Shown piece by piece: positions 3,244-33,710 of a stretch of 37,184 nt of DNA (position 1 is the first letter of the stretch; every line of letters starts with the position of its first letter). This DNA is from Candidatus Moraniibacteriota bacterium (GTDB lineage Bacteria; Patescibacteriota; Minisyncoccia; CAIUEV01), in assembly GCA_016867255.1 (NCBI GenBank), contig VGKB01000002.1:1-37184 (forward strand), read 5' to 3'. The translations under genes and the position numbers were made by a program. A model generated the notes under the pieces. The model searched no databases and was not told the DNA's origin. It was given only the letters and a program-made list of their open reading frames with translations.

Positions 3244-3271
3244 AGGACATTTCTAAAAATTTGTAAGAAAA
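3244..3271. repeat. Second copy of the 28-nt repeat at 1021..1048
   Basis: Exact 28/28 match, followed by a degenerate version of the copy-A promoter (tgcttgcaat vs tgcttgacaat). Confidence 0.9.
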
Positions 3272-4298: not shown

Positions 4299-4952
4299 AT
4301 GGGTTACGAAAAATCAAATCTCAACGATGGAAATGAGAGAGAAAAAACAGAAAGCATTATTATTGAGAACGTTCCGTTTGTTACGCAACTATACGATACA
4401 GATAATTATCAGATTCTAGGCTTTAAAGACTTAGCTGAAGCCGAACACTGGTCAAAAAGAGACTGTGGAATAGTTTGTATTGAAATGGCAGTGAGGTTTT
4501 TTCTTCCGGATCTCAAGATAAGAACAAAGGAATTAATTAATATGGGATTGCAAATCCACGCTTATAAAGAAAATGTTGGTTGGATACACGATGGTTTAGT
4601 AGAAATTGCTACCAGGTTGGGCTTGAAAGCTAGCCGGGAAAGTATCGGAGGAGATCTAGAGAAAATTAAAAACCACTTGGAGGAAAACAGACTGGTGATA
4701 GCATCCATATCGCATGGTTTTGAGGTGGGAAAAGAATATAAAGAAGAAAATGGATCAGTTTATATTGTACCGCGAGGGGGTCACTTGGCGGTTATATTCG
4801 GGATAACCGAAAAACTAGGGAAAATTAAGAGTATTTATCTTCACCACCCTTCTCCATACAAAACATATAGCTGGAAAAACTATTCAGTTTCAGCTAACAA
4901 ATTTATGGGTTCTTTCTCCGAAAGAGGAAACATCATTTCCCTGGGTAAGTAA
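4299..4952 (+). CDS. C39-like (papain-fold) cysteine peptidase/acyltransferase domain protein
   Basis: Catalytic-Cys context RDCGIVCIEMAV and downstream His context PRGGHLAVIFG match the Peptidase_C39_2 / BtrH_N pattern. Starts 6 nt after the ATP-grasp gene. Confidence 0.6.
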   Translation: MGYEKSNLNDGNEREKTESIIIENVPFVTQLYDTDNYQILGFKDLAEAEHWSKRDCGIVCIEMAVRFFLPDLKIRTKELINMGLQIHAYKENVGWIHDGLVEIATRLGLKASRESIGGDLEKIKNHLEENRLVIASISHGFEVGKEYKEENGSVYIVPRGGHLAVIFGITEKLGKIKSIYLHHPSPYKTYSWKNYSVSANKFMGSFSERGNIISLGK

Positions 4953-5154
4953 AGATTTTGTCGTTCCAAGCCGACAGAGAAAAAATAAGGTTTATTATTG
5001 ACTATTGCGATAAAAATAACATCGATTACATCGGCCAAACTGGGTTAACCCCAACCCTGCCTGTATAAATCTCGGGTGTCTTTTATATTTTTAAAGCTAC
5101 AATGTTTTTTCGGATCATCAATAATAGAATAGAGGGGAGATTTTAGCCCGAAAC

Positions 5155-5311
5155 CCCGATTTTGCTTGACAATTTTGTATAAATGGCCAGAATTAAGAGT
5201 TGCCGTAATGGCAAGTTCTTTGAAAAAACCGAGTTTCGCTCGGTCCACGCGAGAACCCGGTCTACCCGGTTAACTCGTGAACAATCTCTGTAGGAGGTGC
5301 CGCGATGAACG
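5155..5311 (+). repeat. 157-nt promoter/leader repeat, copy B
   Basis: See copy A (1051..1207). Confidence 0.95.
5166..5304 (+). promoter_or_regulatory. Promoter plus structured leader, family member B
   Basis: Same architecture as member A. The 1106 a-to-g change lengthens the small stem to TTGCC/GGCAA, and the two changes at 5237-5238 fall in the loop of the CCGAG/CTCGG hairpin. Confidence 0.6.
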
Positions 5312-5877
5312 TTTTCGCTGAGTGGCTGAAGAGATGCGCCGCGTTCTTCGCGGCCCATTGGGAAAAACTGAAAAAGCTGGGAATTACTGTTATTGGATGG
5401 ACTAGCAATAGCGCCGTGGAGGCCGCGTTTAATTACGTGATCTACCCATTCATTATTGTGAAGTTTGGCGTTTTGCTTGGCGTTTCCATTGCGGTAATAG
5501 CTTCTTTCACAATTTGTTGCCTGACTTTTCGTTTTTACGATTGGTCTCAAAAGGACTGGTTCGGAATCGAGAAGATAAAAGAGATTCGCGAAGGAAAGGG
5601 AGATACAAAGGTTGGATGGTTCGCTTCGCGTTTTTTAAAAGGTAGCAAGTGGTTGGCTTTTGTCTACATCACATTCAAATTTGATGCTTTTATGGCAACC
5701 ATATTCATGCGGGAAGGAGCGTATCAATTCAACGAACTGAGCCGGAGAGACAAAAAAATCTTCCTGTTTAGCTTCTTCCTTAGCGCCATCACATGGTGGC
5801 CACTAGTTTGCGGGGTTCTCTATGGAGGAGAGTGGGCCTGGGAAACTTGGTTCAAAGATCTCGCAAACATTTTTTAG
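5305..5877 (+). CDS. Polytopic membrane protein (about 4-5 TM), function unknown
   Basis: Strong SD GGAGG. Hydrophobic segments include YVIYPFIIVKFGVLLGVSIAVIASFTICCL and IFLFSFFLSAITWWPLVCGVLY. Followed by a strong terminator. Confidence 0.8.
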   Translation: MNVFAEWLKRCAAFFAAHWEKLKKLGITVIGWTSNSAVEAAFNYVIYPFIIVKFGVLLGVSIAVIASFTICCLTFRFYDWSQKDWFGIEKIKEIREGKGDTKVGWFASRFLKGSKWLAFVYITFKFDAFMATIFMREGAYQFNELSRRDKKIFLFSFFLSAITWWPLVCGVLYGGEWAWETWFKDLANIF

Positions 5878-6610: not shown

Positions 6611-7901
6611 GTTTTTTTCTATCCTCTTTGATAAATTTTAACCCGATGTCTGTTCGGTAATATTTCTTTGGTATCACTACTTTTTCGATAATCGAATAGA
6701 CTTTCTTTCTGGCTTCCTTAATTGTTTTTCCTACTCCAGAAACGTGCATAATATATCCGCTATTTGCACAAATGTAATATTCTCCGGTCCTTTTCCTTGC
6801 TACCTCTTCGAGGTGAATATGTTTTTGATCTCCGATCTTAAAATTATCTTTAAAATATATCATTAGCCCTTTTGGAGAAAAACTTGTAAACATATTCCGA
6901 TAATAAGGGAATGGTGGAGCCGCCACAAGAACAACTATTCCAAATCCCTTCTTCCACCCCAGATTAAAATTTTTCCCATCAGCAACAGCCTTGAGAAACT
7001 CTGCCCAAGAAGAATTGTGAATCTCCATTTGCAATTGAGTAGCTGGGTATCCAAATCTTGCAGTAGCCTCAAGGGGAAAAACTCCTCTTCGATTAACAAT
7101 GCAGTTTATTGCAATGTCGCCACGAAAATTAATTCTCGCAAGATACTCCTTGAGCTTTGATAAAGTTTCTGAGTATACTTTATTTTTTTCATCATTCGAG
7201 TACCACATAAGAGTACCCATCTCGTCTGTCTTCGGGCCAACTCCCCCGTTAAAAAAATCTTTGTACTCAAAACTAATTTCGATCGGTCCAACCCAATTTT
7301 TCCCGTTAAAATATCTTGCTATGCTAATCTCTACACCCTTAATTCTTTTTTGCAAATCAAATTGAGAACAATTTTTATTTGTGTAATAACTACATTTATA
7401 ATTTTCTAATAGGCTTATCAGATCTCGGTTATCCTTAAATTTGCTTACGTAATTTAAAGTTTTATTACTGTCTCCGCTTTGTTTAATTACCCATGGACCA
7501 GGGTTGCTCTTTAAAAAATCAATGCCTTCTTTTATGTCGTAAAAGGTGGTCGATGGGGAAACGTTCATACCGACAAAACTAAAAATTTTCTGCCCATATT
7601 GCCTGTCTTTTTCTAATTTATCTCCAAGCTTACAGCCTCCCACTACAGAATATCCTTCATTCCTCAATTCATCCTGAACTTTTCCCATGCCAACATCATC
7701 AAAAACAATTAGCCCTTCTTTGCCAACCCAACTAACCCCTTTGTCCAGGTCGTCAATCTTTTCAACAACACCCTCTAAGATTTTCCTAATATCCTTATTC
7801 TTATCTTTTATAAACCACTTTACGTGGTTTCGCTCCCCCTTGAGCTTACAGCAGAGACTTGCTCCGTGGGCATCGGTTGGCGAAACAAAAAGAATACGCA
7901 T
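6588..7901 (-). CDS. PurD-like (phosphoribosylamine--glycine ligase family) ATP-grasp enzyme
   Basis: Segments matching PurD: GLIVFDDVGMGKVQDELRNEGYSVVGG, GPWVIKQSGD, GPKTDEMGTLMWY and FRGDIAINCIVNRRGVFPLEATARFGYPATQ (compare GPNTGGMG and EFNCRFGDPETQ of PurD). No other pur genes in the window. Confidence 0.6.
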   Translation of the reverse strand: MRILFVSPTDAHGASLCCKLKGERNHVKWFIKDKNKDIRKILEGVVEKIDDLDKGVSWVGKEGLIVFDDVGMGKVQDELRNEGYSVVGGCKLGDKLEKDRQYGQKIFSFVGMNVSPSTTFYDIKEGIDFLKSNPGPWVIKQSGDSNKTLNYVSKFKDNRDLISLLENYKCSYYTNKNCSQFDLQKRIKGVEISIARYFNGKNWVGPIEISFEYKDFFNGGVGPKTDEMGTLMWYSNDEKNKVYSETLSKLKEYLARINFRGDIAINCIVNRRGVFPLEATARFGYPATQLQMEIHNSSWAEFLKAVADGKNFNLGWKKGFGIVVLVAAPPFPYYRNMFTSFSPKGLMIYFKDNFKIGDQKHIHLEEVARKRTGEYYICANSGYIMHVSGVGKTIKEARKKVYSIIEKVVIPKKYYRTDIGLKFIKEDRKKLKEWGYL

Positions 7902-8085: not shown

Positions 8086-9927
8086 ATGCTTTGCCTAGAT
8101 TTTGAAACCCCACATTTTCTAGTTTTTGCGAGTACGACTCCTTCTCTTATTTATTTCTCTCATATACCTGCGATGTTGCTATCGTTATTGATGGGATTTT
8201 TTATATTCATAAAAAATAAGAAAGCATTAATTTCGCAAATTTTGTTTACTTTATCTATAACGTTCTCTTTGTCATGCTTTGTCTTACTTATTACTTGGAC
8301 TAATAATGACACCAGCATTATAATGTTTGTTTGGTCAATTTTTGGAATTTTGTATCTTCTGACATTCTTTTTCTCTTTCTATCTAGTATACCTTTTTATA
8401 AAACAGCGTGATATTAGTTTAAAAACAAAAATTTTTCTATCGTTGTTTCTTGCGCCAACCATTTTTTTCGCATCATCAAAATATAATCTAAATGTTTTTG
8501 ACTTAAAACTGTGTGGCATAACCCAAGAAGGAAGATATTTCACAAATTATTATTATATTGCAGGATTAGCGATTTTTATATGGATGTCTATTGTTTCAAT
8601 AACCAATTATTTAAAAATTAAAACTATTTTTAGAAAACAGATTTTACTCTTGCTCGGAGGCGTCAGTTTTTTCTTACTATCACTCTTTTTTACAGGTTTT
8701 TTAGCAAGTCTCTTAGTGGACTATGGGGTATTTAGTGACTATTCTGTGGAGCAATATGGACTATTCGGAATGCTGGTGTTTTTAGCTTTTCTTTCATATC
8801 TAATCATTAAATATCAAGCCTTCGATATTAAAGTTATTGCAGCTCAGTTCCTTACCGTTACGGTGTGGATTGGGGTGTTTTCCCAGTTTTTCATTGTGCA
8901 GGAGTTGAGTAATCAGATTCTTACTGGCGTGACGCTTGCCCTTGTAACGATTTTTGGGTATATGCTTTTTCGCGCCATCAAAGAAGATGTTTCCCTTACC
9001 GAACAATTGCGGCTCGCTTCCGGCAAGCTGGCAATCTTAAACACCAAACTCAAAGAAATTGACGCCGCCAAATCCGAATTCGTCTCCATTGCCTCGCACC
9101 AACTACGCACCCCCCTCACCTCGGTGAAGGGCTACGCCTCCCTCATTTTGGAAAACACCTTCGGAAAAATCCCTCTCCGCCAGCGCGAAGCGGTGGAAAA
9201 ACTCTATGTCAACAACGAAAAACTGGTGCTTTTGGTGGAAGATATGCTCAACGCTTCCCGCCTGGAAGCCGGCCGGCTGGAATACGAATTTGAAGAGGTG
9301 GACGTCCCGCCTCTCATCAAAGAGATAGTGGATAATATGCAGCTCCACGCCAAAAGCAAAAATCTCTTGCTTAAATACACCGCTCCTTCCAAAACCCGTT
9401 CGGCTTCGCTCAGGGCAAGCTCTTTAATCGCCCTTGCCGACAAGCGCAAGGTGGCCGAAATTATCGCCAATCTCATTGACAACGCCGTGAAATACTCCCC
9501 TGCCCTTCATGAAGGGCAGAACAATACGGCTGAAAAACAAACTATAACCGTCAGCGTCTCCCGCTGCGAGTTGGCAAGGCCGGTCGGTAAAGCGAAAAAC
9601 ACCAAAATTCTAAACGGCGCCGGGGTGCGCGTAAGCGTTGCCGACAACGGAATCGGCATGAGCGAAAAGGAACTGAAAGAAATATTTGAGAAGTTTAAAA
9701 AAGGAGAAACGAAAAATGAGAAACAGGAAACGGGATCGTCCTTTATAGTTAAAAGAGAGAAAGAAGGAGAAATTGATAACAAAATAGACAATATCACCGG
9801 CACCGGCCTCGGCGTCTACATCTCCCGCCAGATGGCCCGCGCCATGGGCGGCGATCTGTGCGCCACTTCGCCGGGCAAAGGCAAAGGGAGTACATTTACC
9901 CTAGAATTACCCCTGGTTAAAAAATAG
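8086..9927 (+). CDS. Multi-pass membrane sensor histidine kinase
   Basis: About 270 aa of N-terminal transmembrane helices. H box SEFVSIASHQLRTPLTSVKGY, N box NLIDNAVKYS, G1 DNGIGM and G2 GTGLGVY, with a charged insertion of about 35 aa between the F box and G2. No response regulator nearby. Confidence 0.9.
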   Translation: MLCLDFETPHFLVFASTTPSLIYFSHIPAMLLSLLMGFFIFIKNKKALISQILFTLSITFSLSCFVLLITWTNNDTSIIMFVWSIFGILYLLTFFFSFYLVYLFIKQRDISLKTKIFLSLFLAPTIFFASSKYNLNVFDLKLCGITQEGRYFTNYYYIAGLAIFIWMSIVSITNYLKIKTIFRKQILLLLGGVSFFLLSLFFTGFLASLLVDYGVFSDYSVEQYGLFGMLVFLAFLSYLIIKYQAFDIKVIAAQFLTVTVWIGVFSQFFIVQELSNQILTGVTLALVTIFGYMLFRAIKEDVSLTEQLRLASGKLAILNTKLKEIDAAKSEFVSIASHQLRTPLTSVKGYASLILENTFGKIPLRQREAVEKLYVNNEKLVLLVEDMLNASRLEAGRLEYEFEEVDVPPLIKEIVDNMQLHAKSKNLLLKYTAPSKTRSASLRASSLIALADKRKVAEIIANLIDNAVKYSPALHEGQNNTAEKQTITVSVSRCELARPVGKAKNTKILNGAGVRVSVADNGIGMSEKELKEIFEKFKKGETKNEKQETGSSFIVKREKEGEIDNKIDNITGTGLGVYISRQMARAMGGDLCATSPGKGKGSTFTLELPLVKK

Positions 9928-9933
9928 ATCAGC
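9799..9933 (+). repeat. 135-nt direct repeat, copy 1 (functional 3' end of the kinase gene)
   Basis: Recurs at 13611..13745. The first 56 nt are identical, with about a dozen substitutions after that. Confidence 0.9.
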
Positions 9934-10055
9934 ATCTTCGTCCTCCCTGCCATTCCAAAGCCTATTAGCGTAGGATGGGAATTGCCGCTGGTGAAGCAAT
10001 AGAAAAAACAGCGCCTTGGTTACAATTACACTTATAAGCATACCCATTAAACACA

Positions 10056-10086
10056 ATGCGGTGCTCTTTATAAAGAAACACCGCAT
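10056..10086 (-). terminator. Hairpin downstream of the radical SAM gene
   Basis: ATGCGGTG (10056-10063) pairs with CACCGCAT (10079-10086). On the minus strand it is followed by tgtgtttaat. Sits between convergent genes. Confidence 0.45.
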
Positions 10087-10099
10087 CCTTCATCTCTTG

Positions 10100-11389
10100 T
10101 TACAATAGGCTCCTGAGAATTCGTCCCTTTTTTGAATGGTGACCCCAAGTTGAATTAGGCACTTCCCAAAGAAACCTCTCGGCCTCCCTTTTGACCGATT
10201 CTGCGCTTAATTCACCAGTCCCCATAGTAACCGTGGAAGGATCACAATCATCAGGATCCAACAATGTGATGAGTCCTTTTTCAACAGCCATATTGTAGAG
10301 TGGCGTTCCAAAAAATGGCGTTGAAACAAACAAAGCGATATCGTCAGCTTCTAGTTCCCTTGCAAGTTTTATACTCATATCAACATCTTCACTCGTTTCA
10401 CCTGGCGTGCCCAGCTGAAAAGATACTTTTACTCTTAACCCCAGCTTTTTGGCTGCAGAAATTATTCTTTTGACTTTATCCGGATCCAGTTTCTTGCCTA
10501 GTATTTGTTGGATTTTGGGAGACCCAGACTCGACTCCGAAGAAAATTCTATCGAGTCGGTTCTTTGAGAACTCCTTTAACAACTCTTCCTCGACAACATC
10601 AATTCTTGCTTGACATTCCCAATCAATCCCTTTGGCACTTAACATCGAAGCTATCTCTAAAGAAACTCTTGGCCTCATAGGAAAAATATCATCCAGTATT
10701 CTCAAGTAATTTGCAGGGTATCTGCCCAATAGAGTATTCAATATTTGGAGTATCCTACTGACGCTTCTGAACCTAACTCTTCTTTCCCAAAAAGCCGATT
10801 GGGAGCAATAAATACAACCAAAAGAGCAGCCTCTCCCTGTTGATAATGTTGCAACGAGCTTTCCTTCTTCTTTTTGCGGATACCGCTCCAAGAAGAGAAG
10901 ATCGAAGGCTGGATCAGGCAAGAAGTCCAGATTCGGTACAGTTACTCTTTTATTAACAACGACCCCTTCTTCTCCTTTGTAGGCAATCCCCGGCACCATT
11001 CGTAAGGTTCCCTTTTGTCTTAGCAATAAGTTTGCTAATTTGAGAAAGGGCAACTCTCCTTCGCCCAATACACAAAAATCAACGTTGTCGTTGGCTAAAC
11101 ACTCTGAATAGCAGAAAGTGGGGTAGTATCCTCCAAAAACTACGCTCGCGTTCATATTCTCTTTAACATGACTTGCGAGCGCTAATCCCCTAGCCACAAG
11201 GCCGCAAGGAACTGAAATGCCAACAATTTTGGCTCCGGAATCCGTGATATCTTCTTCTGTTGTTTCAGGCCTAGAAAAATCAACAATTCCTACGGAAAAA
11301 CCATGGTTTTTGATAAAGGCTGCTAGTTCGGCAAGCCCCATCGCTGGATACGGAGACTTCTCCCCTGGGTTTACAAGCAGAATTTCCAT
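10100..11389 (-). CDS. Class B (B12-binding domain) radical SAM enzyme
   Basis: N-terminal Rossmann-like B12-binding region (ILLVNPG...IVGISV...VVFGG), then the cluster motif GRGCSFGCIYC (CxxxCxxC). Strong SD AGGAGG 9 nt before the ATG. Confidence 0.85.
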   Translation of the reverse strand: MEILLVNPGEKSPYPAMGLAELAAFIKNHGFSVGIVDFSRPETTEEDITDSGAKIVGISVPCGLVARGLALASHVKENMNASVVFGGYYPTFCYSECLANDNVDFCVLGEGELPFLKLANLLLRQKGTLRMVPGIAYKGEEGVVVNKRVTVPNLDFLPDPAFDLLFLERYPQKEEGKLVATLSTGRGCSFGCIYCSQSAFWERRVRFRSVSRILQILNTLLGRYPANYLRILDDIFPMRPRVSLEIASMLSAKGIDWECQARIDVVEEELLKEFSKNRLDRIFFGVESGSPKIQQILGKKLDPDKVKRIISAAKKLGLRVKVSFQLGTPGETSEDVDMSIKLARELEADDIALFVSTPFFGTPLYNMAVEKGLITLLDPDDCDPSTVTMGTGELSAESVKREAERFLWEVPNSTWGHHSKKGRILRSLL

Positions 11390-11520
11390 AATCCTTTGCC
11401 CTCCTTTTTTGAACTTGATAATTTTGCTTCGTCTCCTTACAGAAGTTTTACTCAGGCTTTAAAGGACTAATAATAAATAAATCACAAAGTAAAAATATGT
11501 AAAGAGGTTACTTATAAAAA

Positions 11521-12501
11521 CTAACTCACGTAACTTTTCACCCACTCTGTTAGTAAACTTTTATACCTGGTTGGGGATTCCCCAATTAAGAATCTTGCTT
11601 TTGAAATCTCGTCTTTTATCTTTTTTTCGCATTTGGTAATGACTTTATACCTATTTAAGACATGCATGACTTTTTCTGCCCGTCTTTTGCCAATGGCTTT
11701 TCCCCAATAATTATCTACAAATTCTTTTTTGTCTTTCTCTGAAGCATCGTTAAAAAAGACGGCTATCGGGTAACTAATAGTTTCTCCCTCCAAGTCTTTC
11801 ATCTTAGGTTCATAATCATTGTCATCATAATAGATTCCGAAATCATCCAAGTCATTTTTTATCTGCCCTACGATGCCCATTATCTTGATAAACCCGACTA
11901 TTTCCCGTTTCTCTTTTTCACTCAATGAGTCATCAATTATTGTTGTTGCCTCAAGAGGCCATCTCCCAAGGGCTGTTTTCCTTAGGTAATTGTTCAACAA
12001 GGAATGGGTTGATGCTTTATCAAACGAAAAGTTATTTTGCTCTATCTGTGCTTTTAACGTCATTTTTATCGCTTTATGTAGGGTTAGCTTGATTTCCTTA
12101 TGTTCGCTAAAGTTTTTTACTGCCAATTCTTCGGAAATAATAAACCCTAGAGCAGCGGCATGAACTGCTTCCAGCAAGCCAAACTTCAACCAGACAGCCT
12201 TCTTGCCTCTACGTATCCTAGTTTTATCGCCAATGTCGTCTAATATTAAAATAGCTGACCAAGATATTTCTGAAATTGCCCCCACTAAAGCTCCTCTGCT
12301 ATAGTCATTGAGAAGTAAAGACGGCAATCCTGATCTAAACCGATTTCTGCCAGATTTAATTGTGTATGATAGCGCTCTTGCTTCTTTTACTTCTCCGATA
12401 TATTCTTTTATCAGAGGCTTCGTGAATTCTTCAAAAGCTCGATTAAACTCTCGAAATAAATTCTTCTCAGGTTTTTTATGTTTATCCATTTTAATTCTCA
12501 T
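11521..12501 (-). CDS. trans-Polyprenyl diphosphate synthase (FPPS/GGPPS family)
   Basis: First Asp-rich motif LILDDIGDKTRIRRGK and second motif GQIKNDLDDF at the expected spacing. 326 aa. Confidence 0.8.
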   Translation of the reverse strand: MRIKMDKHKKPEKNLFREFNRAFEEFTKPLIKEYIGEVKEARALSYTIKSGRNRFRSGLPSLLLNDYSRGALVGAISEISWSAILILDDIGDKTRIRRGKKAVWLKFGLLEAVHAAALGFIISEELAVKNFSEHKEIKLTLHKAIKMTLKAQIEQNNFSFDKASTHSLLNNYLRKTALGRWPLEATTIIDDSLSEKEKREIVGFIKIMGIVGQIKNDLDDFGIYYDDNDYEPKMKDLEGETISYPIAVFFNDASEKDKKEFVDNYWGKAIGKRRAEKVMHVLNRYKVITKCEKKIKDEISKARFLIGESPTRYKSLLTEWVKSYVS

Positions 12502-12529
12502 TAAAAAATTATTTATTTTATAAAAAAAT

Positions 12530-13513
12530 ATGAACGCGACTTGGGAGCAAGAAAAAATAGTAATCGTTGATAAAAACGATAATGAGTTGGGAACTATGGA
12601 TAAAAATATCTGCCATAAGGTTAAGGGAATTCTTCACAGAGCCATAACAATATTTATTATAAACGATAAAAACCAGATACTGATAACCAAACGAAGCACA
12701 TACAAAAAACTTTGGCCAAAACACTGGGAGTCGTCTTGTTCTACTCACGTTCTTGAAAACGAAAGTTACGTGGAGGCCGGCGAAAGACGAATAAAGCAAG
12801 AGTTAGGGATAAGTTGTAAGCTAAACTACTTATTAAAATTCAATTATAAAGCCGCATACAAAAATATTGGCTCAGAAAATGAAATTTGCGCTTTACTGAT
12901 TGGCAAGTTTAATGGGAGTATTAACTCCAATCCCCGAGAAATTTCCGATCATCGCTGGGTTTCTTTTGACGATCTGGGATATGCTATTGAATTCGATGGT
13001 GGAAGATATGTCCCCTGGTTAGCTGTCGCTTTCAAAGAATTTATTAAGATTAAAGAGATTGTCGGCAACAAGCTTCAAGTTTGTGTCGCAGCAATTGTAG
13101 TAAAGGGTGGTAAAATACTAATCTTCAAAGAAAAAAATAATAAAGCTTACGAAAAAGCAAAAGGTTTGTGGACGGTACCCATAGGAAAGACCAGGGAGAG
13201 TGAACTACTACTAAAATCAGTCTTGAGGGAAACTAGGGAGGAAGTTGGTTACAGCATTGAAATCCTAGGATTGATTGGAGTCTATGAGTTTTTTTCGTCA
13301 AAAACGAATAACCGCATCCTGGGTCTCGCTTTCAAGGCAATCCCAATAGATAATAAAAGAAGTCGACTGCGAGAATTTAAAAAATTATATTGGGTTGATC
13401 CAAAAAAATTGCTCCAGGATAAGAAATTAAAATTTAGAAAAGGTGTAAAAGCAATTATCAAAGACTTTATCGGCGGTAAACTATTAGAAGTTAAACAAAT
13501 AAAATCTCTATAG
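12530..13513 (+). CDS. idi: Isopentenyl-diphosphate delta-isomerase (type 1) fused to a second Nudix hydrolase domain
   Basis: The N-terminal half aligns with E. coli Idi: LHRAITIFIINDKNQILITKRSTYKKLWPKHWESSCSTH vs [39 protein letters not shown], and ENEICALL vs ENEVCPVF. The C-terminal half has its own Nudix box GKTRESELLLKSVLRETREEVGY. Confidence 0.85.
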   Translation: MNATWEQEKIVIVDKNDNELGTMDKNICHKVKGILHRAITIFIINDKNQILITKRSTYKKLWPKHWESSCSTHVLENESYVEAGERRIKQELGISCKLNYLLKFNYKAAYKNIGSENEICALLIGKFNGSINSNPREISDHRWVSFDDLGYAIEFDGGRYVPWLAVAFKEFIKIKEIVGNKLQVCVAAIVVKGGKILIFKEKNNKAYEKAKGLWTVPIGKTRESELLLKSVLRETREEVGYSIEILGLIGVYEFFSSKTNNRILGLAFKAIPIDNKRSRLREFKKLYWVDPKKLLQDKKLKFRKGVKAIIKDFIGGKLLEVKQIKSL

Positions 13514-13575
13514 GCATGCACTAAAGTTCCAAAGTTTTCTCCCTTTTGGATAGAGGGGGGAGATAAAAGAGGGGG

Positions 13576-13604
13576 TTGACACCGAAAGTAGTCATGGATA
13601 AAAT
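13576..13604 (+). promoter_or_regulatory. Promoter-like TTGACA-17 nt-TAAAAT reading into the kinase remnant
   Basis: TTGACA at 13576-13581, TAAAAT at 13599-13604. Confidence 0.4.
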
Positions 13605-13610
13605 ACCAGT

Positions 13611-13745
13611 GGCACCGGCCTCGGCGTCTACATCTCCCGCCAGATGGCCCGCGCCATGGGCGGCGACCTCTACGCCACCTCCCCCGGGAAGAATAAAGGG
13701 AGTACCTTTACCCTAGAATTACCCCTGGTTAAAAAATAGATCAGC
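13611..13745 (+). pseudogene. Remnant 3' end of a histidine-kinase gene (repeat copy 2)
   Basis: Translates in frame as GTGLGVYISRQMARAMGGDLYATSPGKNKGSTFTLELPLVKK*, but an in-frame TAA lies at 13599-13601 and there is no kinase body upstream. Confidence 0.8.
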
Positions 13746-13841
13746 TGTTTATTTTGCTCTACTCCATCCAAAGCTCCTTTTCCTGTAAAATGAGGGGGCT
13801 ATATTCTGTTAAAAAAATTGCATGAACATACCCAAAAAACC

Positions 13842-13985
13842 TTGACAAAAATGAATAAAAATTGATAATTAAGGGTTGTTAAAAGGGCAAGTTCTTTAAA
13901 AAATGTTCGTAGGAACCCAAGGTGTTAAGCTATAACACTTTGGGTTCCTACGAACAAGACCAGACAAGACGAGGAGGGAAAAACC
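13842..13985 (+). promoter_or_regulatory. Promoter (TTGACA-17 nt-ATAATT) plus structured leader, family member C
   Basis: AAGGGTTGTTAAAAGGGCAAGTTCTTTAAAAAA (13871-13903) matches members A and B. Then a roughly 22-bp hairpin at 13905-13955 (gttcgtaggaacccaaggtgtt / aacactttgggttcctacgaac). SD GGAGGG precedes ATG 13986. Confidence 0.6.
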
Positions 13986-14285
13986 ATGAAAAAAATCGCG
14001 GTGTTGGGTTTCGTGTTCTTTCTTTTGTGCGTTGCTCTCACATTAGGAACGTGGTGGCTGACCAAGCCGTTGTTGCCATCCACTACGAACCTGATCACCT
14101 CTGCGCCGGCAGAGGAGGTTTTTGACAGGGTTCGCTCAGGGACATCAGACCGGGAGGTATTTGATTACCTCCGGGGTGGTGGTGGACCCAGACCAGATCC
14201 ATCCACCACAACGACAACGCCCACCGAACCCAGCAGACCCAAGCCGGGACCTAACCGTAACCGGCCGATGCCGATAAAGATCTGA
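13986..14285 (+). CDS. Small secreted or membrane-anchored Pro/Thr-rich protein
   Basis: Signal/anchor MKKIAVLGFVFFLLCVALTLGTWW, then a low-complexity tail (GGGGPRPDPSTTTTTPTEPSRPKPGPNRNRP). Good SD and its own terminator. Confidence 0.7.
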   Translation: MKKIAVLGFVFFLLCVALTLGTWWLTKPLLPSTTNLITSAPAEEVFDRVRSGTSDREVFDYLRGGGGPRPDPSTTTTTPTEPSRPKPGPNRNRPMPIKI

Positions 14286-14290
14286 CCCTT

Positions 14291-14348
14291 AGGGACAAGG
14301 TGCCAGCCGTTACTTTTTACGGCTCCCCGCCTTGTCCCTTTTTCTTTT
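14291..14348 (+). terminator. Rho-independent terminator
   Basis: AGGGACAAGG (14291-14300) pairs with CCTTGTCCCT (14330-14339), with an inner AGCCGT/ACGGCT stem, then TTTTTCTTTT. Confidence 0.8.
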
Positions 14349-14371
14349 GGACAACAAAAACTGCGTTTGTC

Positions 14372-14533
14372 TTGACAAAACCGTAGTTATTTTGATAATA
14401 AAAGGTTGCCTGATTGGAACTTGCGGCTCAAGTTCCGGGGCGACAGGTTCTTTATAAAACATATTCCTTAGCCAAAAAAGATATCCGCCCCTGGCGGAAA
14501 ACCCAACAACCCGATACCCATAAGGAGGAGTTT
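14372..14533 (+). promoter_or_regulatory. Promoter (TTGACA-17 nt-ATAATA) plus structured leader, family member D
   Basis: GTTGCC (14405-14410) pairs with GGCGAC (14439-14444) and encloses an inserted hairpin GGAACTTG-cggct-CAAGTTCC (14416-14436). Then AGGTTCTTTATAAAAC and hairpin CCGCC-cct-GGCGG. SD AAGGAGG precedes ATG 14534. Confidence 0.6.
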
Positions 14534-15328
14534 ATGAACAGATTCTGGAAAATCTACATCGTGGCGCTGATCGTCCTGATCGGCGTCTTCTGGGGAATTA
14601 TCTCCACCTGCATAGACAGGGGCTTACACCTGATAGGATCTAAGTTGAGTAGCACGGGCGAACAACAAAGAACTCCGCCAAAATCCCCGATAGAAGTTTG
14701 GGGCGGCTGGATCGGTTTGGAGACCTTAGTTGATAAGGAAGGCAATCCAGTTTGGTCGCCGGCTTACTATGTCAACCCGAAATTGTTTCAGGTTCCCGTA
14801 GATCAAGTTGGGCACTTGATTGTTCCCCTGCCTCCCATATCGGTAAACTGCGAAATAAATGTGGGGAGGAATTTCTGGCTGCACAGAGAGACAGTTATTG
14901 ACAAACTTGAGAAAGAAGGGGGCATCCCTGTTGAGAAAAAAGAGGTGACAACGGGATTTAAGTCGCCTCAGCTCAAGTTCGAACAACCCCCTGAATTCTT
15001 GTTTCCAAGAGTAATAAGGGCATACTTTGACCACCTCAAATGGCTAAACGAGCAATTCGATGAGGCCATTAAGAAATACTCAGATAAACAAGTGGCGAGG
15101 GACGCCCAAAAACACGGGAAGGAAGAAGAGCTTAAGGAAAACATCCGTAAACTCCGCCAAGACAGCGAAGAGTTGCAGAAGTACCGGAAATGGCTGGGAA
15201 AATGCGAGGACTATGTCCTTGTTTTGGCGAAGAGAAAAATATCTGACTCCCGCCTCATGAATGTCGTGTGGGAGTTCTACGTTATACGCAAGGACAGGCT
15301 TGATGAGGAATTGAATAGGGATAAGTAG
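14534..15328 (+). CDS. N-terminally anchored protein with charged coiled-coil-like C-terminus, function unknown
   Basis: Preferred start is MNRFWKIYIVALIVLIGVFWGII, which has SD AAGGAGG 6 nt upstream. The track's TTG start at 14414 would translate the conserved leader. Confidence 0.7.
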   Translation: MNRFWKIYIVALIVLIGVFWGIISTCIDRGLHLIGSKLSSTGEQQRTPPKSPIEVWGGWIGLETLVDKEGNPVWSPAYYVNPKLFQVPVDQVGHLIVPLPPISVNCEINVGRNFWLHRETVIDKLEKEGGIPVEKKEVTTGFKSPQLKFEQPPEFLFPRVIRAYFDHLKWLNEQFDEAIKKYSDKQVARDAQKHGKEEELKENIRKLRQDSEELQKYRKWLGKCEDYVLVLAKRKISDSRLMNVVWEFYVIRKDRLDEELNRDK

Positions 15329-16066: not shown

Positions 16067-17125
16067 TCACGGAAAAAGAAGTGAAAGAAACGCACCGAGA
16101 ATGAGAAACGGCCCGAACGGCAGGGCGGTTTTCATCTGGGCGCGGCCAAAAAGCATTAAAACTAAGCCAACCACCGCTCCTGTCTGGAAAGCAAAAAAGA
16201 GCGCCACCAGCGTCTTCCCAACTCCCAAAAAAAGCCCCAGTAAAAACGCCAGCTGGACATCTCCCCTGCCCATCCAAGTCTCCCGGCTTACCCAAACGAT
16301 AAAATAAAAGAAACCGGCGGCAAAAATCCCCGCGGCGAGGCCCGCAAACGTTCGGGATTCCGCCAAAAGGGATAAATACGGATACTCCGCCGGCGTAAAA
16401 AAAAGCGCCTTGAGATGAATCGCCCGCGCGTAAAAATCCGCCGGCGCGAGCCAAAAAGTCTCCAAAAAACCCGGCGGGATAACCCTTAATCCGGCAAGGC
16501 CAGCGGCGTATTCCTTTATCTTCAAGATTAAAATTTGATTTTTGGAAGCTAAAATGCCGATAAAAAGTCCAATGTCCGCGACAAAATTAAACGCCAAAGA
16601 AAAAATAATTCCCCAGATAACATAGGCATCCGGAATCAGCATATGCTTAAGATCATAGACAAAGATAGCAATTAGCGCCGCCGCCACAGCAAAAACGAAA
16701 ATCAGTTCAAAAAACTTCCATCCGGCGTCAAGGGACGCAAGTGAAACGTTTACGCCCACTTTTTCTAAAAGCGTTTTGGTCCCTAATACGCCGAAAAAAT
16801 GGCCCAGCCAATCGTTCCAATAATTATTAAGTGAGAAATAAACAATACCAAGAAACAACACGCCCGTCGCGCCTTCCACCAAAGGGTACTGCCGGCTGAT
16901 TTTACGGCGGCAAAAGCGGCAGCGGCCGCTCAATATGAGAAAACTTAAAAGTGGGATGTTATCCTGCCACGGGAGCTGCCTCCTGCAGTGAGGGCAAAAC
17001 GACCGTCCGCCAATTCCCCTTCCCTTTTCGGTGCGATAGATTACGACATTGAGAAAACTGCCGGCAATAAGGCCGAGCAAAGCGCTAAAAAAATACGGCA
17101 CGGCATTAGAAAGAATTTCTAACAT
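16067..17125 (-). CDS. pilD: Prepilin peptidase (type IV leader peptidase/N-methyltransferase, A24 family)
   Basis: Zn-binding N-terminal segment CPHCRRQLPWQDNIPLLSFLILSGRCRFCRRKISRQYPLVE and catalytic region MGRGDVQLAFLLG. Start taken at MLEILS (17125); the track's ATG at 17185 lies inside the long hairpin element. Confidence 0.9.
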   Translation of the reverse strand: MLEILSNAVPYFFSALLGLIAGSFLNVVIYRTEKGRGIGGRSFCPHCRRQLPWQDNIPLLSFLILSGRCRFCRRKISRQYPLVEGATGVLFLGIVYFSLNNYWNDWLGHFFGVLGTKTLLEKVGVNVSLASLDAGWKFFELIFVFAVAAALIAIFVYDLKHMLIPDAYVIWGIIFSLAFNFVADIGLFIGILASKNQILILKIKEYAAGLAGLRVIPPGFLETFWLAPADFYARAIHLKALFFTPAEYPYLSLLAESRTFAGLAAGIFAAGFFYFIVWVSRETWMGRGDVQLAFLLGLFLGVGKTLVALFFAFQTGAVVGLVLMLFGRAQMKTALPFGPFLILGAFLSLLFP

Positions 17126-17664: not shown

Positions 17665-20600
17665 TTATTCTCCTTCCCATCTCACCCTTCCTTCCCCTAA
17701 AATATCCACCAATTGTTTCTTTAAAGTTTCGGTAAATTTTACCAAATATTGCGTCCTATAATCATTTACGACATTTTTTCCACCATTTTTAATCTTCAAA
17801 ATTACCGGGATTTTCCCTTTTGCGGAATTACCCAAGACTAAGTTTAACCGTGGAATCACTAACTCGGCGTTAAGCGACTTATCAAGATGGAGAAAAACTT
17901 CCCCTGATTTGATGATTTCCAAAAGAGAAGCACCTCCATGCCCCTTTGTTGCCACACTTTTATCTTTTTTAAAAAGATTTTTCTTTGATTTGACTGGACC
18001 AGCCGCGTTTGTTTGACTATTGGAATTTCCTTGAAACTGCCTGCCCGTCCCTGCCTCGCCGGCAGGCGGGCGGTAGGCGGGGGAATTTGGAACTTTCTTG
18101 GCTATTTGTCCCTCCTCCGCCATTTTGGCAAATTCCGCAAGCGGGTATCCCTTTTCCACTAATACTTTAATACTGTCGTCTTTAGTGCTGACTCGTCCTT
18201 CAACCACTAGTTTCGCCCCCGAAAACCACAGCGCCTGATTCTCCGCGTAAGTACGCGGAAAAACAATCACTTCCAGCCGGCCGCTCAGATCTTCAATTTC
18301 CGCAAAAACCATTAAATCATTGGCCTTTGTGTAAATTTTCTTCACTCTTCCCACCACTCCAGCCACCCGGACCGGCCTCCGATCATCCTTCATCGTAAGC
18401 GCGCTGATTCCTGCCGCGTATTTTTCCATCAACTCCCGGTACTCATCCAAGGGATGGCCGGAGACAAAAAGCCCCAGTAATTCCTTTTCCCATTTTAGCC
18501 GCTCCTCGTCACTAGCCGCTTCCCCCGGAACCAAAGTAATGTCGTGGGTCGTCTCGCCAAAAAGCCCTTGCAGCTGCGCTTTCTCAGTTTGCTGTTTGTG
18601 AAATTGCAAAAACCGGTCCAGATTGGAGAGTAAAAGCCCCCTTTCGCCAAACTCCTTCATCGCTCCCGCCCTAATCAAGCTTTCCAGTGATTTTTTGTTT
18701 AGGTCTTTGTCCTGAATCCTCTTTAGAAAATCGCCGATACCCTTGAATTCTCCGTTCCTTCGCCTCTCGCTTACAATCATTTCCACAATATGATCCCCCA
18801 CGTTTTTTACGGCCTTGAGCCCAAACCTGATTAGCTGTTTTTTTTCTTTTCCTTTTTTTTCTTCCTCATCAATTACCGTAAAGTTGCCAAAACTCTGGTT
18901 TACCGAGGGCGGTAAAACCGCAATGCCTAGCTGGCGGCACTCTTCCACTTCAATGGCAATCCGGTCAATGTCATTCTGGTCCGCCGTAAGGAGCGCCGCC
19001 ATAAATTCCGCTGGATAATTCCCTTTGAGGTAGGCCGTTTGGTAGCCAATCATGGCGTAGCAGGCCGCGTGGCTGCGATTGAATCCGTATTGGGCAAACT
19101 TTTCCATATCGGAAAAAGCTTTCTCGGCAATTCTCTTCCCCACCCCATTTTTCACACAGCCCCTGACAAAATCCTCCCGCAGTTTCAAAATTAGCTCCGG
19201 AATTTTTTTGCCCATTCCCTTTCTTAAAGTATCCGCTTCTCCGCCGGTAAATCCAGCCATATCCTTGCTAAGCTGCATTACCTGTTCCTGATAAACAATC
19301 ACGCCGTAGGTGTTCTTGAGCGCCTGTTCCATAGAAGGATGTTCATAGTGGATGCTTCTCTCTCCGTGCTTGCGGGCAATAAATTCGTCCACCATTCCCG
19401 AGTTAAGCGGACCGGGGCGGTAGAGAGCCGCCATCGCGATCAAATCTTCAAAAGAAGTGGGATGCAGTTTCCTAAGGTAGCGGCGCATGCCGGAGGACTC
19501 ATACTGGAAAAAGCCGGTAGTCTCGCCCTTTTGAAAAAGCGCGAATGCCTTGGGGTCGTTAAGCGGGATATTGCTCAGGTCAATTTCCGCGCCGTAGCGG
19601 TGTTTGATAATATTCACTGTGTTTTGTAGAAGCGTCAGGTTTTTAAGCCCCAAAAAATCCATTTTCAAAAGCCCCACTTTTTCCACTGATTTCATTTCAT
19701 ATTGGGTGATAACCGTCTTGTCTTCATTAGAAGCGTATTGGAGGGGAGCGAAATTCGTGAGCTCCTCCGGCGCGATCACTACGCCGCAGGCGTGGCGGGA
19801 GGCGTGGCGGGCCACTCCTTCCAATCGCTTGGCGTTGTCAATAAGTTTGGTAATGGCAGGATCTTTTTCGTAAATTTCCTGGAGATCGGACGCCGCGGCA
19901 AGGGCTTCCTTGAAATTCATCATCATGGGAACCATTTTGGCCACCCGGTCGCAAAGTTCGTAAGGGTAGCCCAAAACCCGGCCCACGTCGCGCACTGAGG
20001 CTCGCGCCGCCATCGTCCCAAAAGTGATAATTTGCGCCACTTTTTCCCGTCCATAATTTTCCGCCACGTAATCAATCACTTCGTCGCGGCGGTTGTCCGC
20101 GAAATCCACGTCAATATCCGGCATGCTTATCCGGTCCGGATTTAAGAAACGTTCAAAAAGGAGGTCGTATTTGATTGGGTCTATTTCAGTAATTCCCAGC
20201 AAAAAGGAAATGAGACTGCCCGCCGCCGAGCCCCGACCCGGCCCCACTACAATTCCCTGCCCCTTGGCCCAATTAACGAAGTCCTGCACAATTAAAAGAT
20301 AGGAAGCAAACCCCATGCGTTTAATTGTTTCAATTTCGTAATTAAAACGTTCGCGAATTTCCTTGTCCGCCTCTTTTAGATTTTTGCCAAAACGCCTCTG
20401 CATTCCAATGTCGCACAATTCTAAAAGGTAGGATTCCGGGGTCTTTTCCCGCGGGGTGGGAAAGGCCGGCAGAAACGACTTGCCTAAAGGGATTTCCAAA
20501 TTGCACTCCGCAGCAATTTTTTGGCTGTTCTCCACCGCTTCCGGCACATCCAAAAAATTGCTGCGGATTTCTTCGCCGGTGCGAAAATGCAAATTAAATT

Positions 20601-21565: not shown

Positions 21566-22186
21566 ATGCTGGAGCAAGCAGGTCGTTTTTTGGTTAGAGA
21601 AAAATACCTGGACCCGCGATACAAAAACCAATTAGAAGAATGGGAGAAGCAAAAAATAGCGGAGGCGGAAAAAAAAGTCGCAAACCTCGGGCGCTACCGG
21701 ACGATCAAGGCGCGGGCGGCGATGGCGAAAGAAGAAATTGAAAAATTTGAGGAAGGCATAAAATACGGGGGGAAAATTTTTTTTCCGCTCCTTTTCGCCT
21801 GCGCTTTAGCCACCGACTTTGCCGATTCGCTCCCGGTCTTTATTGACAAGCTCATAAAAATTGCCGCTCTGGCGGTCATTTGGTACAACATTCTCGTAAA
21901 AGGAAGCGCTCCGGGCTATCTGGACCCCAAATATCGGGTGGAGATTAGCTTTCGCGTCCGCCTGATTATGCGCCTCCTCGGCTTGGCCGATCTTCTTCCT
22001 TTTATTGATGTTTTACCTCTGACTACCCTTTCGGTCTTTATCGTCTGGATTCGCGTTCGCAGGCAAATCCGGGAGCGAAAAAGGGGGTTTGAAGAGCAGG
22101 AGCAGAAGGGCTCCGCCATTGCCGATTCCGGGAATCAAGCCGGGCAACAACTCCAACAGGAAGAACCCCAACGACTTGCCGCTTAA
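21566..22186 (+). CDS. Membrane protein (about 3 TM), function unknown
   Basis: Charged N-terminal helix, hydrophobic segments (IFFPLLFACALATDF, IAALAVIWYNILV, LPLTTLSVFIVWI) and a Gln/Glu-rich tail. Confidence 0.65.
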   Translation: MLEQAGRFLVREKYLDPRYKNQLEEWEKQKIAEAEKKVANLGRYRTIKARAAMAKEEIEKFEEGIKYGGKIFFPLLFACALATDFADSLPVFIDKLIKIAALAVIWYNILVKGSAPGYLDPKYRVEISFRVRLIMRLLGLADLLPFIDVLPLTTLSVFIVWIRVRRQIRERKRGFEEQEQKGSAIADSGNQAGQQLQQEEPQRLAA

Positions 22187-22229
22187 ACAGAGCAAAGACA
22201 TAAAAAACAATCAAAAACAAATTAAAACA

Positions 22230-33482: not shown

Positions 33483-33513
33483 ATAAATAATTAAAAATTT
33501 AAAAATAATAAAG

Positions 33514-33598
33514 TGCCGGAGAGGAGAGTTGAACTCCTACCACCCTAAGGGTGACAACGCCCTGAACGTTGCGTGTCTGCCAATTCCACCACTCCGGC
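33514..33598 (-). tRNA. tRNA-Leu (anticodon CAG)
   Basis: The reverse complement folds by hand. Acceptor GCCGGAG/CTCCGGC, D arm GTGG..ACAC, anticodon stem CAACG/CGTTG with loop TTCAGGG, long variable arm CACCC-tta-GGGTG, T arm AGGAG-TTCAACT-CTCCT, discriminator A. No encoded CCA. Confidence 0.9.
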
Positions 33599-33710
33599 GT
33601 CTTTCGCTAAAGCTCCAGAACGCCTAAAAGGTATTCCGTAGCCTTAGCGAAGGATACCACTCCGGCGTCTTTCGCTAAAGCTCCAGAACGCCTAAAAGGT
33701 ATTCCGTAGC
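33588..33710. repeat. 55-nt direct repeat x2 (33588-33642 and 33656-33710) covering tRNA-Leu positions 1-11 plus 44 nt of its upstream flank
   Basis: Both copies read accactccggcgtctttcgctaaagctccagaacgcctaaaaggtattccgtagc. Period 68 nt. Confidence 0.9.

Follow-up and report, generated by a model that had tools for sequence, protein, structure and literature searches.

The stretch analyzed here (the window) comprises 37,184 nucleotides (nt) of contig VGKB01000002.1 from a Candidatus Moraniibacteriota bacterium, a member of the candidate phyla radiation (CPR, or Patescibacteria). It carries a gene for a sensor histidine kinase, in which a multi-pass membrane N-terminal half is followed by HisKA (1e-15) and HATPase_c (6e-21) domains in Pfam. 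Within the last ~135 nt of this gene a three-gene module is inserted, such that one copy of the kinase 3′ end (copy A) completes the kinase and a second one (copy B) borders the downstream genes (Table 1). The comparative evidence, which is drawn from metagenome contigs throughout, indicates that the locus is an insertion scar at a hot spot common to the clade, the kinase–dnaE interval being variable in this group of Patescibacteria. Accessory genes were inserted inside the last 72–152 nt of the kinase gene repeatedly and in several lineages. At each insertion the gene end was duplicated and the kinase left intact, with two functional alleles involved and the resulting copies mosaic.

The two copies lie in the same orientation and align without gaps, 123 of 135 bases being identical (blastn E = 9e-46). 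This bears out the location given in an earlier note on this DNA, made from the letters alone, as well as its description of 56 identical nt followed by about a dozen differences. A repeat search extends the match to 144 nt (9790–9933 and 13602–13745, 90%) and finds just two copies in the 37-kb window. Copy B translates in frame as GTGLGVYISRQMARAMGGDLYATSPGKNKGSTFTLELPLVKK, followed by the stop. An in-frame TAA (13599–13601) stands ahead of it, directly before the start of the alignable repeat at 13602, and no significant similarity is found upstream of that position (p = 0.2), so that no kinase body is attached to copy B, again as the note had claimed. An independent JGI assembly (L001; 99.97% identical, 2 mismatches in 5,992 nt) confirms the kinase-to-cargo junction. 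On the right side, two Logan assemblies are an exact match, and their contigs stop within the repeat, as is expected where a short-read graph branches.

All 12 differences between the copies fall in nt 57–96, and nt 1–56 and the last 39 nt (97–135) are identical; the chance of finding at least 11 of the 12 in a given 40-nt block is about 5e-6. The changed codons comprise eight that are synonymous and two that change the residue (C/Y and G/N). When 12 random substitutions were simulated in the 40-nt block, an outcome with at most two residue changes and no stop arose in no more than 2 of 10,000 trials (P ≤ 2e-4). Over the block, copies A and B are identical at 28 of 40 positions, compared with 24–31 of 40 for either copy against the kinases of relatives, which belong to other genera and whose kinase proteins are only 55–62% identical. 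Since the differences are nearly all synonymous and the divergence is like that between genera, two functional kinase alleles must have met here. On this substitution pattern the differences did not come from the decay of a dead copy, and both versions derive from working kinase genes. The copies are thus a recombination mosaic, with two selected kinase versions inside flanks that were made identical. Comparison of the divergent block with the relatives gives no polarity as to which copy is resident and which incoming.

The three genes between the copies look together like an isoprenoid-related module. The first has partial NCBIfam matches to B12-binding radical-SAM families and ~60% identical homologues elsewhere, and the N-terminal half of the third corresponds to type-1 isopentenyl-diphosphate isomerase (NCBIfam NF002995, 127.7 bits versus a cutoff of 127). 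The trio is absent near the kinase in all kinase relatives. It is found colinear over 3.1 kb, with 54–61% amino-acid identity, on an 89-kb contig in another context (L052–54), and, with the gene order changed, on 24 contigs of a third lineage (L055–60). The cargo is therefore accessory and portable. In GC content and tetranucleotide usage it is no outlier, since among 102 windows of equal size 22 deviate at least as much (GC 0.387 versus 0.427). The earlier note had named a composition like that of the flanks, together with conserved synteny, as grounds against an insertion. The composition is indeed unremarkable, but synteny is not conserved, which makes the composition uninformative rather than refuting; it fits an acquisition from related organisms.

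Orthologues of the kinase in CPR genomes are 44–62% identical to that of the window, the named homologues being in Moranbacteria, Taylorbacteria and Minisyncoccota metagenome-assembled genomes. Eight of the orthologous loci fetched have at least 1.6 kb behind the kinase, and in five of these eight (six of nine loci when the window is included) orphan copies of the genome's own kinase end lie downstream. There are one to four orphans per genome, always downstream and in the orientation of the kinase, between unrelated blocks of one to three genes. Each is 86–100% identical to the kinase end of its own genome, far closer than to the kinases of other genomes. The distance from the left edge of the repeat to the end of the stop codon is 72–152 nt and varies by genome, the left edges inside L033 agreeing to within ~5 nt. 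The stretch right behind the kinase is different in every genome compared. Three loci (L004, L047, L050) have no orphan and no cargo block of this kind, and in the P0008 contig a DUF4325–MerR pair follows 132 nt after the kinase, which leaves no room for cargo. Site occupancy in relatives, a comparison that the earlier note had proposed, is thus other cargo or none. Around the variable stretch a backbone is kept in the relatives, consisting of purD and its neighbours upstream and of the PIN/antitoxin genes, prepilin peptidase, DciA and DnaE downstream. To the right of copy B the window has, in order, a promoter/operator-like repeat, two unknown open reading frames (ORFs), a PIN toxin pair, prepilin peptidase, DciA and DnaE.

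Table 1. Features of the window and of the related loci with orphan kinase ends (positions in the window unless another locus is named)
Feature	Position	Strand	Description
Sensor histidine kinase gene, 613 aa	8086..9927	+	Heads the variable region
Repeat copy A	9799..9933	+	Last 42 codons of the kinase, stop, 6 nt; working gene end
Older short kinase-end relic	9934..10002	+	F-x-L codon remains, ~34-nt hairpin-forming insert, ELPLVKQ codons and stop (9979–10002)
Cargo gene 1: B12-binding radical-SAM enzyme, methyltransferase-like class	10100..11389	-	Pfam B12-binding, Radical_SAM
Cargo gene 2: polyprenyl diphosphate synthase	11521..12501	-	Pfam polyprenyl_synt 9.5e-19
Cargo gene 3: double NUDIX protein	12530..13513	+	Pfam NUDIX, two stretches
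Putative promoter-like site, TTGACA-17-TAAAAT	13576..13604	+	Ends at the left edge of copy B
Repeat copy B	13611..13745	+	Orphan kinase 3′ end (42 codons, stop, 6 nt), without upstream kinase body
Strongly decayed relic counterpart after copy B	13746..13815	+	Similarity to 9934–10013 marginal, p = 0.04
Promoter/operator-like repeat	13841..13903	+	Opens the conserved downstream backbone; related copies at 1061–1123 and 5165–5227
orf99	13986-14285		Downstream backbone
orf304	14414-15328		Downstream backbone; homologue in the same interval of L003
L003 orphan			A single copy of 132 nt, matching its own kinase end at 97.7%; lies 8 nt behind an AdoHcyase/NUDIX gene
L002 orphans			Two, which end a two-gene radical-SAM block and a DUF4325–MerR block; in addition, a relic immediately behind the kinase stop
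L032 orphans			Three; divide a peptidase/phosphotransferase block from a radical-SAM/NUDIX block
L033 orphans			Three, 73–80 nt, 96–100%, and a stub; divide three unrelated blocks of 1.4–2.6 kb
L046 orphan			One, truncated; behind a gene fragment
DUF4325/MerR-type pair	L002 5700-6998; L003 4927-5962; L046 12144-13172; P0008 contig
L033 sites of the right-flank unit	11856-11911, 14263-14354, 16666-16784, 18048-18161		Orphan right-flank observation

Some further observations concern the relatives. In several of them the kinase or an orphan is adjoined by a pair of genes, one for a DUF4325 (STAS-like) protein and one for a 241-aa MerR-type protein that has a weak excisionase-like match to HTH_17; in L002 the pair lies between two orphans, and the window is without it. 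The L033 orphans share ~25 nt of right flank (TTTTTTAATATTTCA..GTTGA), in which R1 and the stub have a TTGACA promoter-like box, and the L033 kinase copy is parted from the stub of this right-flank unit by a ~150-nt hairpin-containing insert bounded by 11-nt direct repeats. Just past the last L033 orphan, 17 nt (18224–18240) match the 3′ end of a tmRNA/tRNA model with E = 0.026, far below the gathering score, and an IS3-type transposase pair with a GIY-YIG gene follows at 18332–19599.

The weak similarity that the earlier note had noticed past both stops is marginal as a plain alignment, and it is accounted for by an older, shorter kinase-end relic that follows each copy. An ELPLVK-coding pattern occurs three times in the window versus 0.01 expected, the third occurrence being at 9979–9996. 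L002 and L032 have equivalent relics, in which a homologous insert occupies the same codon boundary and the tail corresponds to the kinase tail of the respective lineage. The relic hairpin is what most strongly hints at a site-specific step. As a separate observation, the tRNA-Leu gene of the window (33513–33598, minus strand) has an exact 55-nt repeat with a 13-nt spacer, that is, a 68-nt tandem duplication (33588–33710) that includes the first 11 nt of the tRNA. The hairpin at the junction of this duplication (ATTCC..AGCC..TTAGCG.AGGAT) resembles the kinase-relic hairpin at 9950–9978.

Brackets made of gene fragments are also found at other sites. In the window itself, the promoter, leader and first codons of orf190 form a 161-nt direct repeat (97%) at 1047–1207 and 5151–5311, the intact gene being at 5305–5877. 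The upstream copy is an orphan which, with a more divergent stretch of the first ~17 codons, runs to ~1253 and gives a 44-codon dead-end ORF. Between orphan and intact gene lies a 4.1-kb segment with methyltransferase, Fic, Ddl and C39-like peptidase genes. This case is the mirror image of the kinase-end case. In L052, the isoprenoid module is part of an 11-kb segment with brackets of 401 nt (96%; 4562–4962 and 16179–16579) that are a 5′ fragment of a C39-like peptidase gene. In L055, the 3′ end of a HAD-hydrolase gene is present three times (7205–7279, 8828–8902 and 11848–11922), dividing two blocks and closing the isoprenoid module. The bracketing repeats thus range from ~55 to 401 nt and belong to four genes, namely the kinase (3′ end), orf190 (5′ end), the HAD hydrolase (3′ end) and the peptidase (5′ end). 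Since fragments of three different resident genes enclose one and the same module in three genomes, the repeats come from the insertion site and not from a fixed attachment (att) site borne by the cargo. The process is probably general and homology-driven, rather than bound to a kinase-specific att site.

Nested in the 4.1-kb segment of the window are two exact direct repeats with sharp edges, of 28 nt (1021–1048 and 3244–3271) and of 27 nt (2069–2095 and 2958–2984), which bracket the methyltransferase–Fic pair and Fic alone, respectively. Either more insertion scars or regulatory sites held in common could account for them.

The absence of integrase and transposase genes stated in the earlier note holds over the whole window, where Pfam detects no integrase, transposase or recombinase in any of the 31 ORFs and PHROGs none in the unknown ORFs. 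The same is true of the relatives: no recombinase is found in ~nine cassettes of five genomes, and no integrase, resolvase, reverse transcriptase or cassette-borne transposase in the cassettes of L032 and L033 (Pfam) or of L002 and L003 (precomputed gene tables). There is no tRNA at the kinase site, and no integrase/replication module is seen. Searches of viral contigs (with a degenerate DNA pattern and two protein queries) and of phages and plasmids (with the repeat) give no match, and no RNA family of Rfam is matched. Single-strand DNA folds of both strands contain no attC-like hairpin (z-scores of -0.9 to -2.4). Two known types of system were considered and rejected. A diversity-generating retroelement has a similar layout, but a reverse transcriptase is missing, and among the 12 mismatches all four bases occur in both copies, rather than adenines alone being affected. 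As to integrons, the repeats do not fold in an attC-like manner on either strand, and the window scans reveal no platform of intI with attI and promoter.

We give an even chance to a homology-driven exchange of cassettes, in which the gene end is a portable attachment site and no dedicated integrase takes part. The donor DNA would be a fragment carrying the kinase stop codon together with neighbouring genes, either from a related genome or excised from an array. It would join the resident kinase end by a single crossover (Campbell-type) in the case of a circle, or by a one-sided homology-facilitated event in the case of linear DNA. The joining would be carried out by the homologous recombination of the host, and the product would consist of gene, cargo and orphan end. 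Excision would follow the same logic, with recombination between two repeat copies freeing a circle that has one copy and could integrate at another place. Arrays whose edges coincide, as in L033, would result from unequal crossing-over between repeat copies, and gene conversion would maintain the similarity of the copies and yield mosaics. Such a scheme would also explain why the scars are gene ends, because only fragments with a start or a stop codon leave the gene intact.

A number of points speak against homology-driven exchange. Neither a recombination intermediate nor a donor molecule has been seen, and no close strain with an empty site, the near-identical contigs stopping inside the repeat. 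The identical flanks around the deeply divergent 40-nt patch require additional gene-conversion steps. The HAD-hydrolase repeat of L055 is A/G-rich and of low complexity and is therefore weaker evidence. The near-equal left edges of the L033 orphans and the reuse of the kinase end in at least six lineages are explained equally well by a site-specific enzyme, and a homologous small hairpin sits at the FIL/ELP boundary of the older relics in three lineages. Finally, 37 kb have been seen of a genome assumed to be ~1 Mb, and a recombinase could lie elsewhere in it.

These last points lead to the main rival, site-specific integration, which we consider possible, if rather doubtful. Here an attP that mimics the kinase 3′ end would be used by a tyrosine or serine recombinase that acts in trans from elsewhere in the genome, as happens with integron cassettes and mobilisable islands, or has been lost from elements now degenerate. 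The architecture is exactly that of islands in gene 3′ ends, and arrays of partial target copies have been described for tycheposon islands. The fixed codon boundary of the relic hairpin, the left edges of the three L033 orphans (within ~5 nt) and the shared gene end in the at least six lineages would all be accounted for, and the weak tmRNA/tRNA-like 3′ fragment and the IS3-type transposase after the last L033 orphan can be counted on the same side. Against it stand the lack of a recombinase in the cassettes and in the window, the left edges that vary by genome, the bracketing of the same cargo by fragments of other genes in other genomes, and the absence of the kinase end from every phage, plasmid or viral contig searched. 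The earlier note had proposed integration into the 3′ end of the gene in the manner of tRNA-targeting islands. Of this proposal, the insertion footprint and the intact kinase stand, and a replacement end from outside is in keeping with the two functional alleles seen in the copies. Its integrase-mediated part is unsupported, since there is no recombinase, the left edges vary and fragments of other genes bracket cargo alike.

The other alternatives fare worse. An in-place tandem duplication running from the kinase 3′ end through the downstream genes, followed by differential loss and with nothing foreign inserted, is improbable. Tandem duplications are common, the cargo is composed like its flanks, and the L033 orphans are 96–100% identical to the gene end, all of which such an origin would accommodate. 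An orphan that is non-functional from birth is, however, not expected to show 12 nearly all synonymous differences. Furthermore, the cargo is absent near the kinase of every relative and yet forms a unit elsewhere, and the cassettes within one array have no genes in common.

Even less probable is that the repeat has a function at the nucleotide level, as an RNA, a terminator or a site of protein binding that is contained in the kinase end and reused behind other operons. The kinase 3′ end is indeed rich in GC at third codon positions (GC3, 0.65–0.75) in AT-rich genomes, and a promoter-like site abuts the orphan of the window; inspection of the flanks by eye noticed no comparable site at the L003 or L033 orphans. 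Over 11 kinases, the synonymous-codon identity at conserved residues is 0.46–0.52 at the 3′ end and thus no higher than the 0.465 of the whole gene, and the missing Rfam match and the modest folding z-scores mentioned above point the same way. The differences in the window track protein constraint and not structural constraint.

The earlier note had also entertained an overwritten tandem kinase paralogue, of which copy B would be the rest. Copy B does retain an open frame, and the window has a paralogous kinase fragment at another site (10–363), but this fragment is only ~51% identical over the repeat stretch, nothing significant precedes 13602, and no relative has tandem kinases at this position. 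Instead, the relatives have up to four short orphans that match their own kinase (86–100%) and have no kinase body, which refutes the proposal and leaves it a very small probability. A metagenome mis-join at shared sequence, to which the Logan contigs that break inside the repeat might point, is scarcely credible, as the orphan is joined on its left to unique sequence, the kinase-to-cargo junction is confirmed independently, and independent assemblies from JGI, ENA and NCBI show this architecture again with other cargo.

It is useful to compare the locus with known systems. Islands in gene 3′ ends include the tRNA/tmRNA islands, SGI1 in trmE (PMC8409611) and GIsul2 (PMC9376610). As in these, direct repeats of the target 3′ end flank the cargo, the gene remains intact, and relatives have other cargo or none. 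Unlike in these (the target of GIsul2, for instance, is guaA), no integrase or excisionase lies in or beside the element, the target is a sensor kinase in CPR, the extent of the repeat varies by genome, and the cargo is small and metabolic, without mobility genes. The tycheposons of Prochlorococcus target tRNA genes, and their intact elements have tyrosine recombinases (bioRxiv 10.1101/2020.12.28.424599). They resemble the present case in that serial insertions push older cargo outward with partial target copies between the blocks, many of which have no mobility genes; such partial copies are present in L033 (three and a stub), L032 and L002. They differ from it in their target, since here a protein-coding gene end takes the place of the tRNA gene, and in that neither an intact element nor a recombinase is seen here. 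With integron arrays the locus shares ordered small cargo units behind a fixed site, each closed by a similar repeat. Unlike integrons, it has no IntI/attI, its repeats are not imperfect palindromes of the attC type, and its cassettes have one to three genes in either orientation with promoters of their own. The locus thus lacks a defining feature of each of these families, be it integrase, tRNA target or attC/IntI.

Closer in mechanism are the microcin H47 island of E. coli, which is small, recombinase-less and flanked by direct repeats (PMC3191183, PMC5426353), and homology-facilitated illegitimate or Campbell-type recombination (PMC3240628), as well as mosaic outcomes of transformation (PMC13344027). 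In these cases, as here, segments are gained or lost via flanking direct repeats with no element-encoded recombinase, and donor–resident mosaics are formed. Those are, however, laboratory or single-locus cases, whereas the present arrangement recurs, in the loci compared, at an orthologous gene end across a clade and forms arrays.

Several features of the kinase gene and the backbone are worth recording in their own right. In the window, L002, L003, L004 and L046, the GC3 of the kinase gene is 0.2–0.4 in the membrane half and 0.55–0.85 in the cytoplasmic half. In the AT-rich L032 and L033 it is ~0.2–0.45 (with one isolated peak in L033) and reaches 0.64–0.70 in the last ~44 codons, and L047, which is without an orphan copy, does not show the rise. 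Biased gene conversion at a hot spot of recombination is one possible cause of this pattern. The promoter/operator-like repeats at 1061–1123, 5165–5227 and 13841–13903 consist of a promoter-like TTGACA box and a near-palindrome (AAGAGTTGCC..GGCAAGTTCTT) common to three transcription units, which suggests a common regulator. A near-perfect hairpin of ~22 bp in the orf99 leader (13904–13956) gave spurious Rfam matches to miRNA precursors. Further downstream, positions 22089–25049 encode a 986-aa membrane protein with a TrbL/VirB6-type domain, a component of conjugation or type IV secretion that is unexpected in a CPR genome.

In the literature we found neither a kinase gene that serves as an insertion platform nor arrays of orphan gene ends described for CPR, although this does not prove that no such description exists. 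The genomes of CPR/Patescibacteria are tiny, and how they gain accessory genes is poorly understood. The locus described here is a reusable insertion platform behind a conserved sensor kinase, whose insertion history is legible from orphan gene ends. A broader and more tentative proposal is that CPR build integron-like arrays of accessory cassettes without a dedicated recombinase, a gene-end fragment serving as the attachment site of each cassette. Host homologous recombination would then insert, excise and shuffle the cassettes, with the kinase–dnaE interval as one platform and other gene ends used likewise. In practice, such repeats interrupt short-read assemblies precisely where the regions are variable. 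A homology-driven process would offer a simple way to gain genes, one overlooked by standard finders of islands and integrons because they require an integrase; in that case orphan gene-end repeats would provide a cheap marker of flexible regions in metagenome-assembled genomes.

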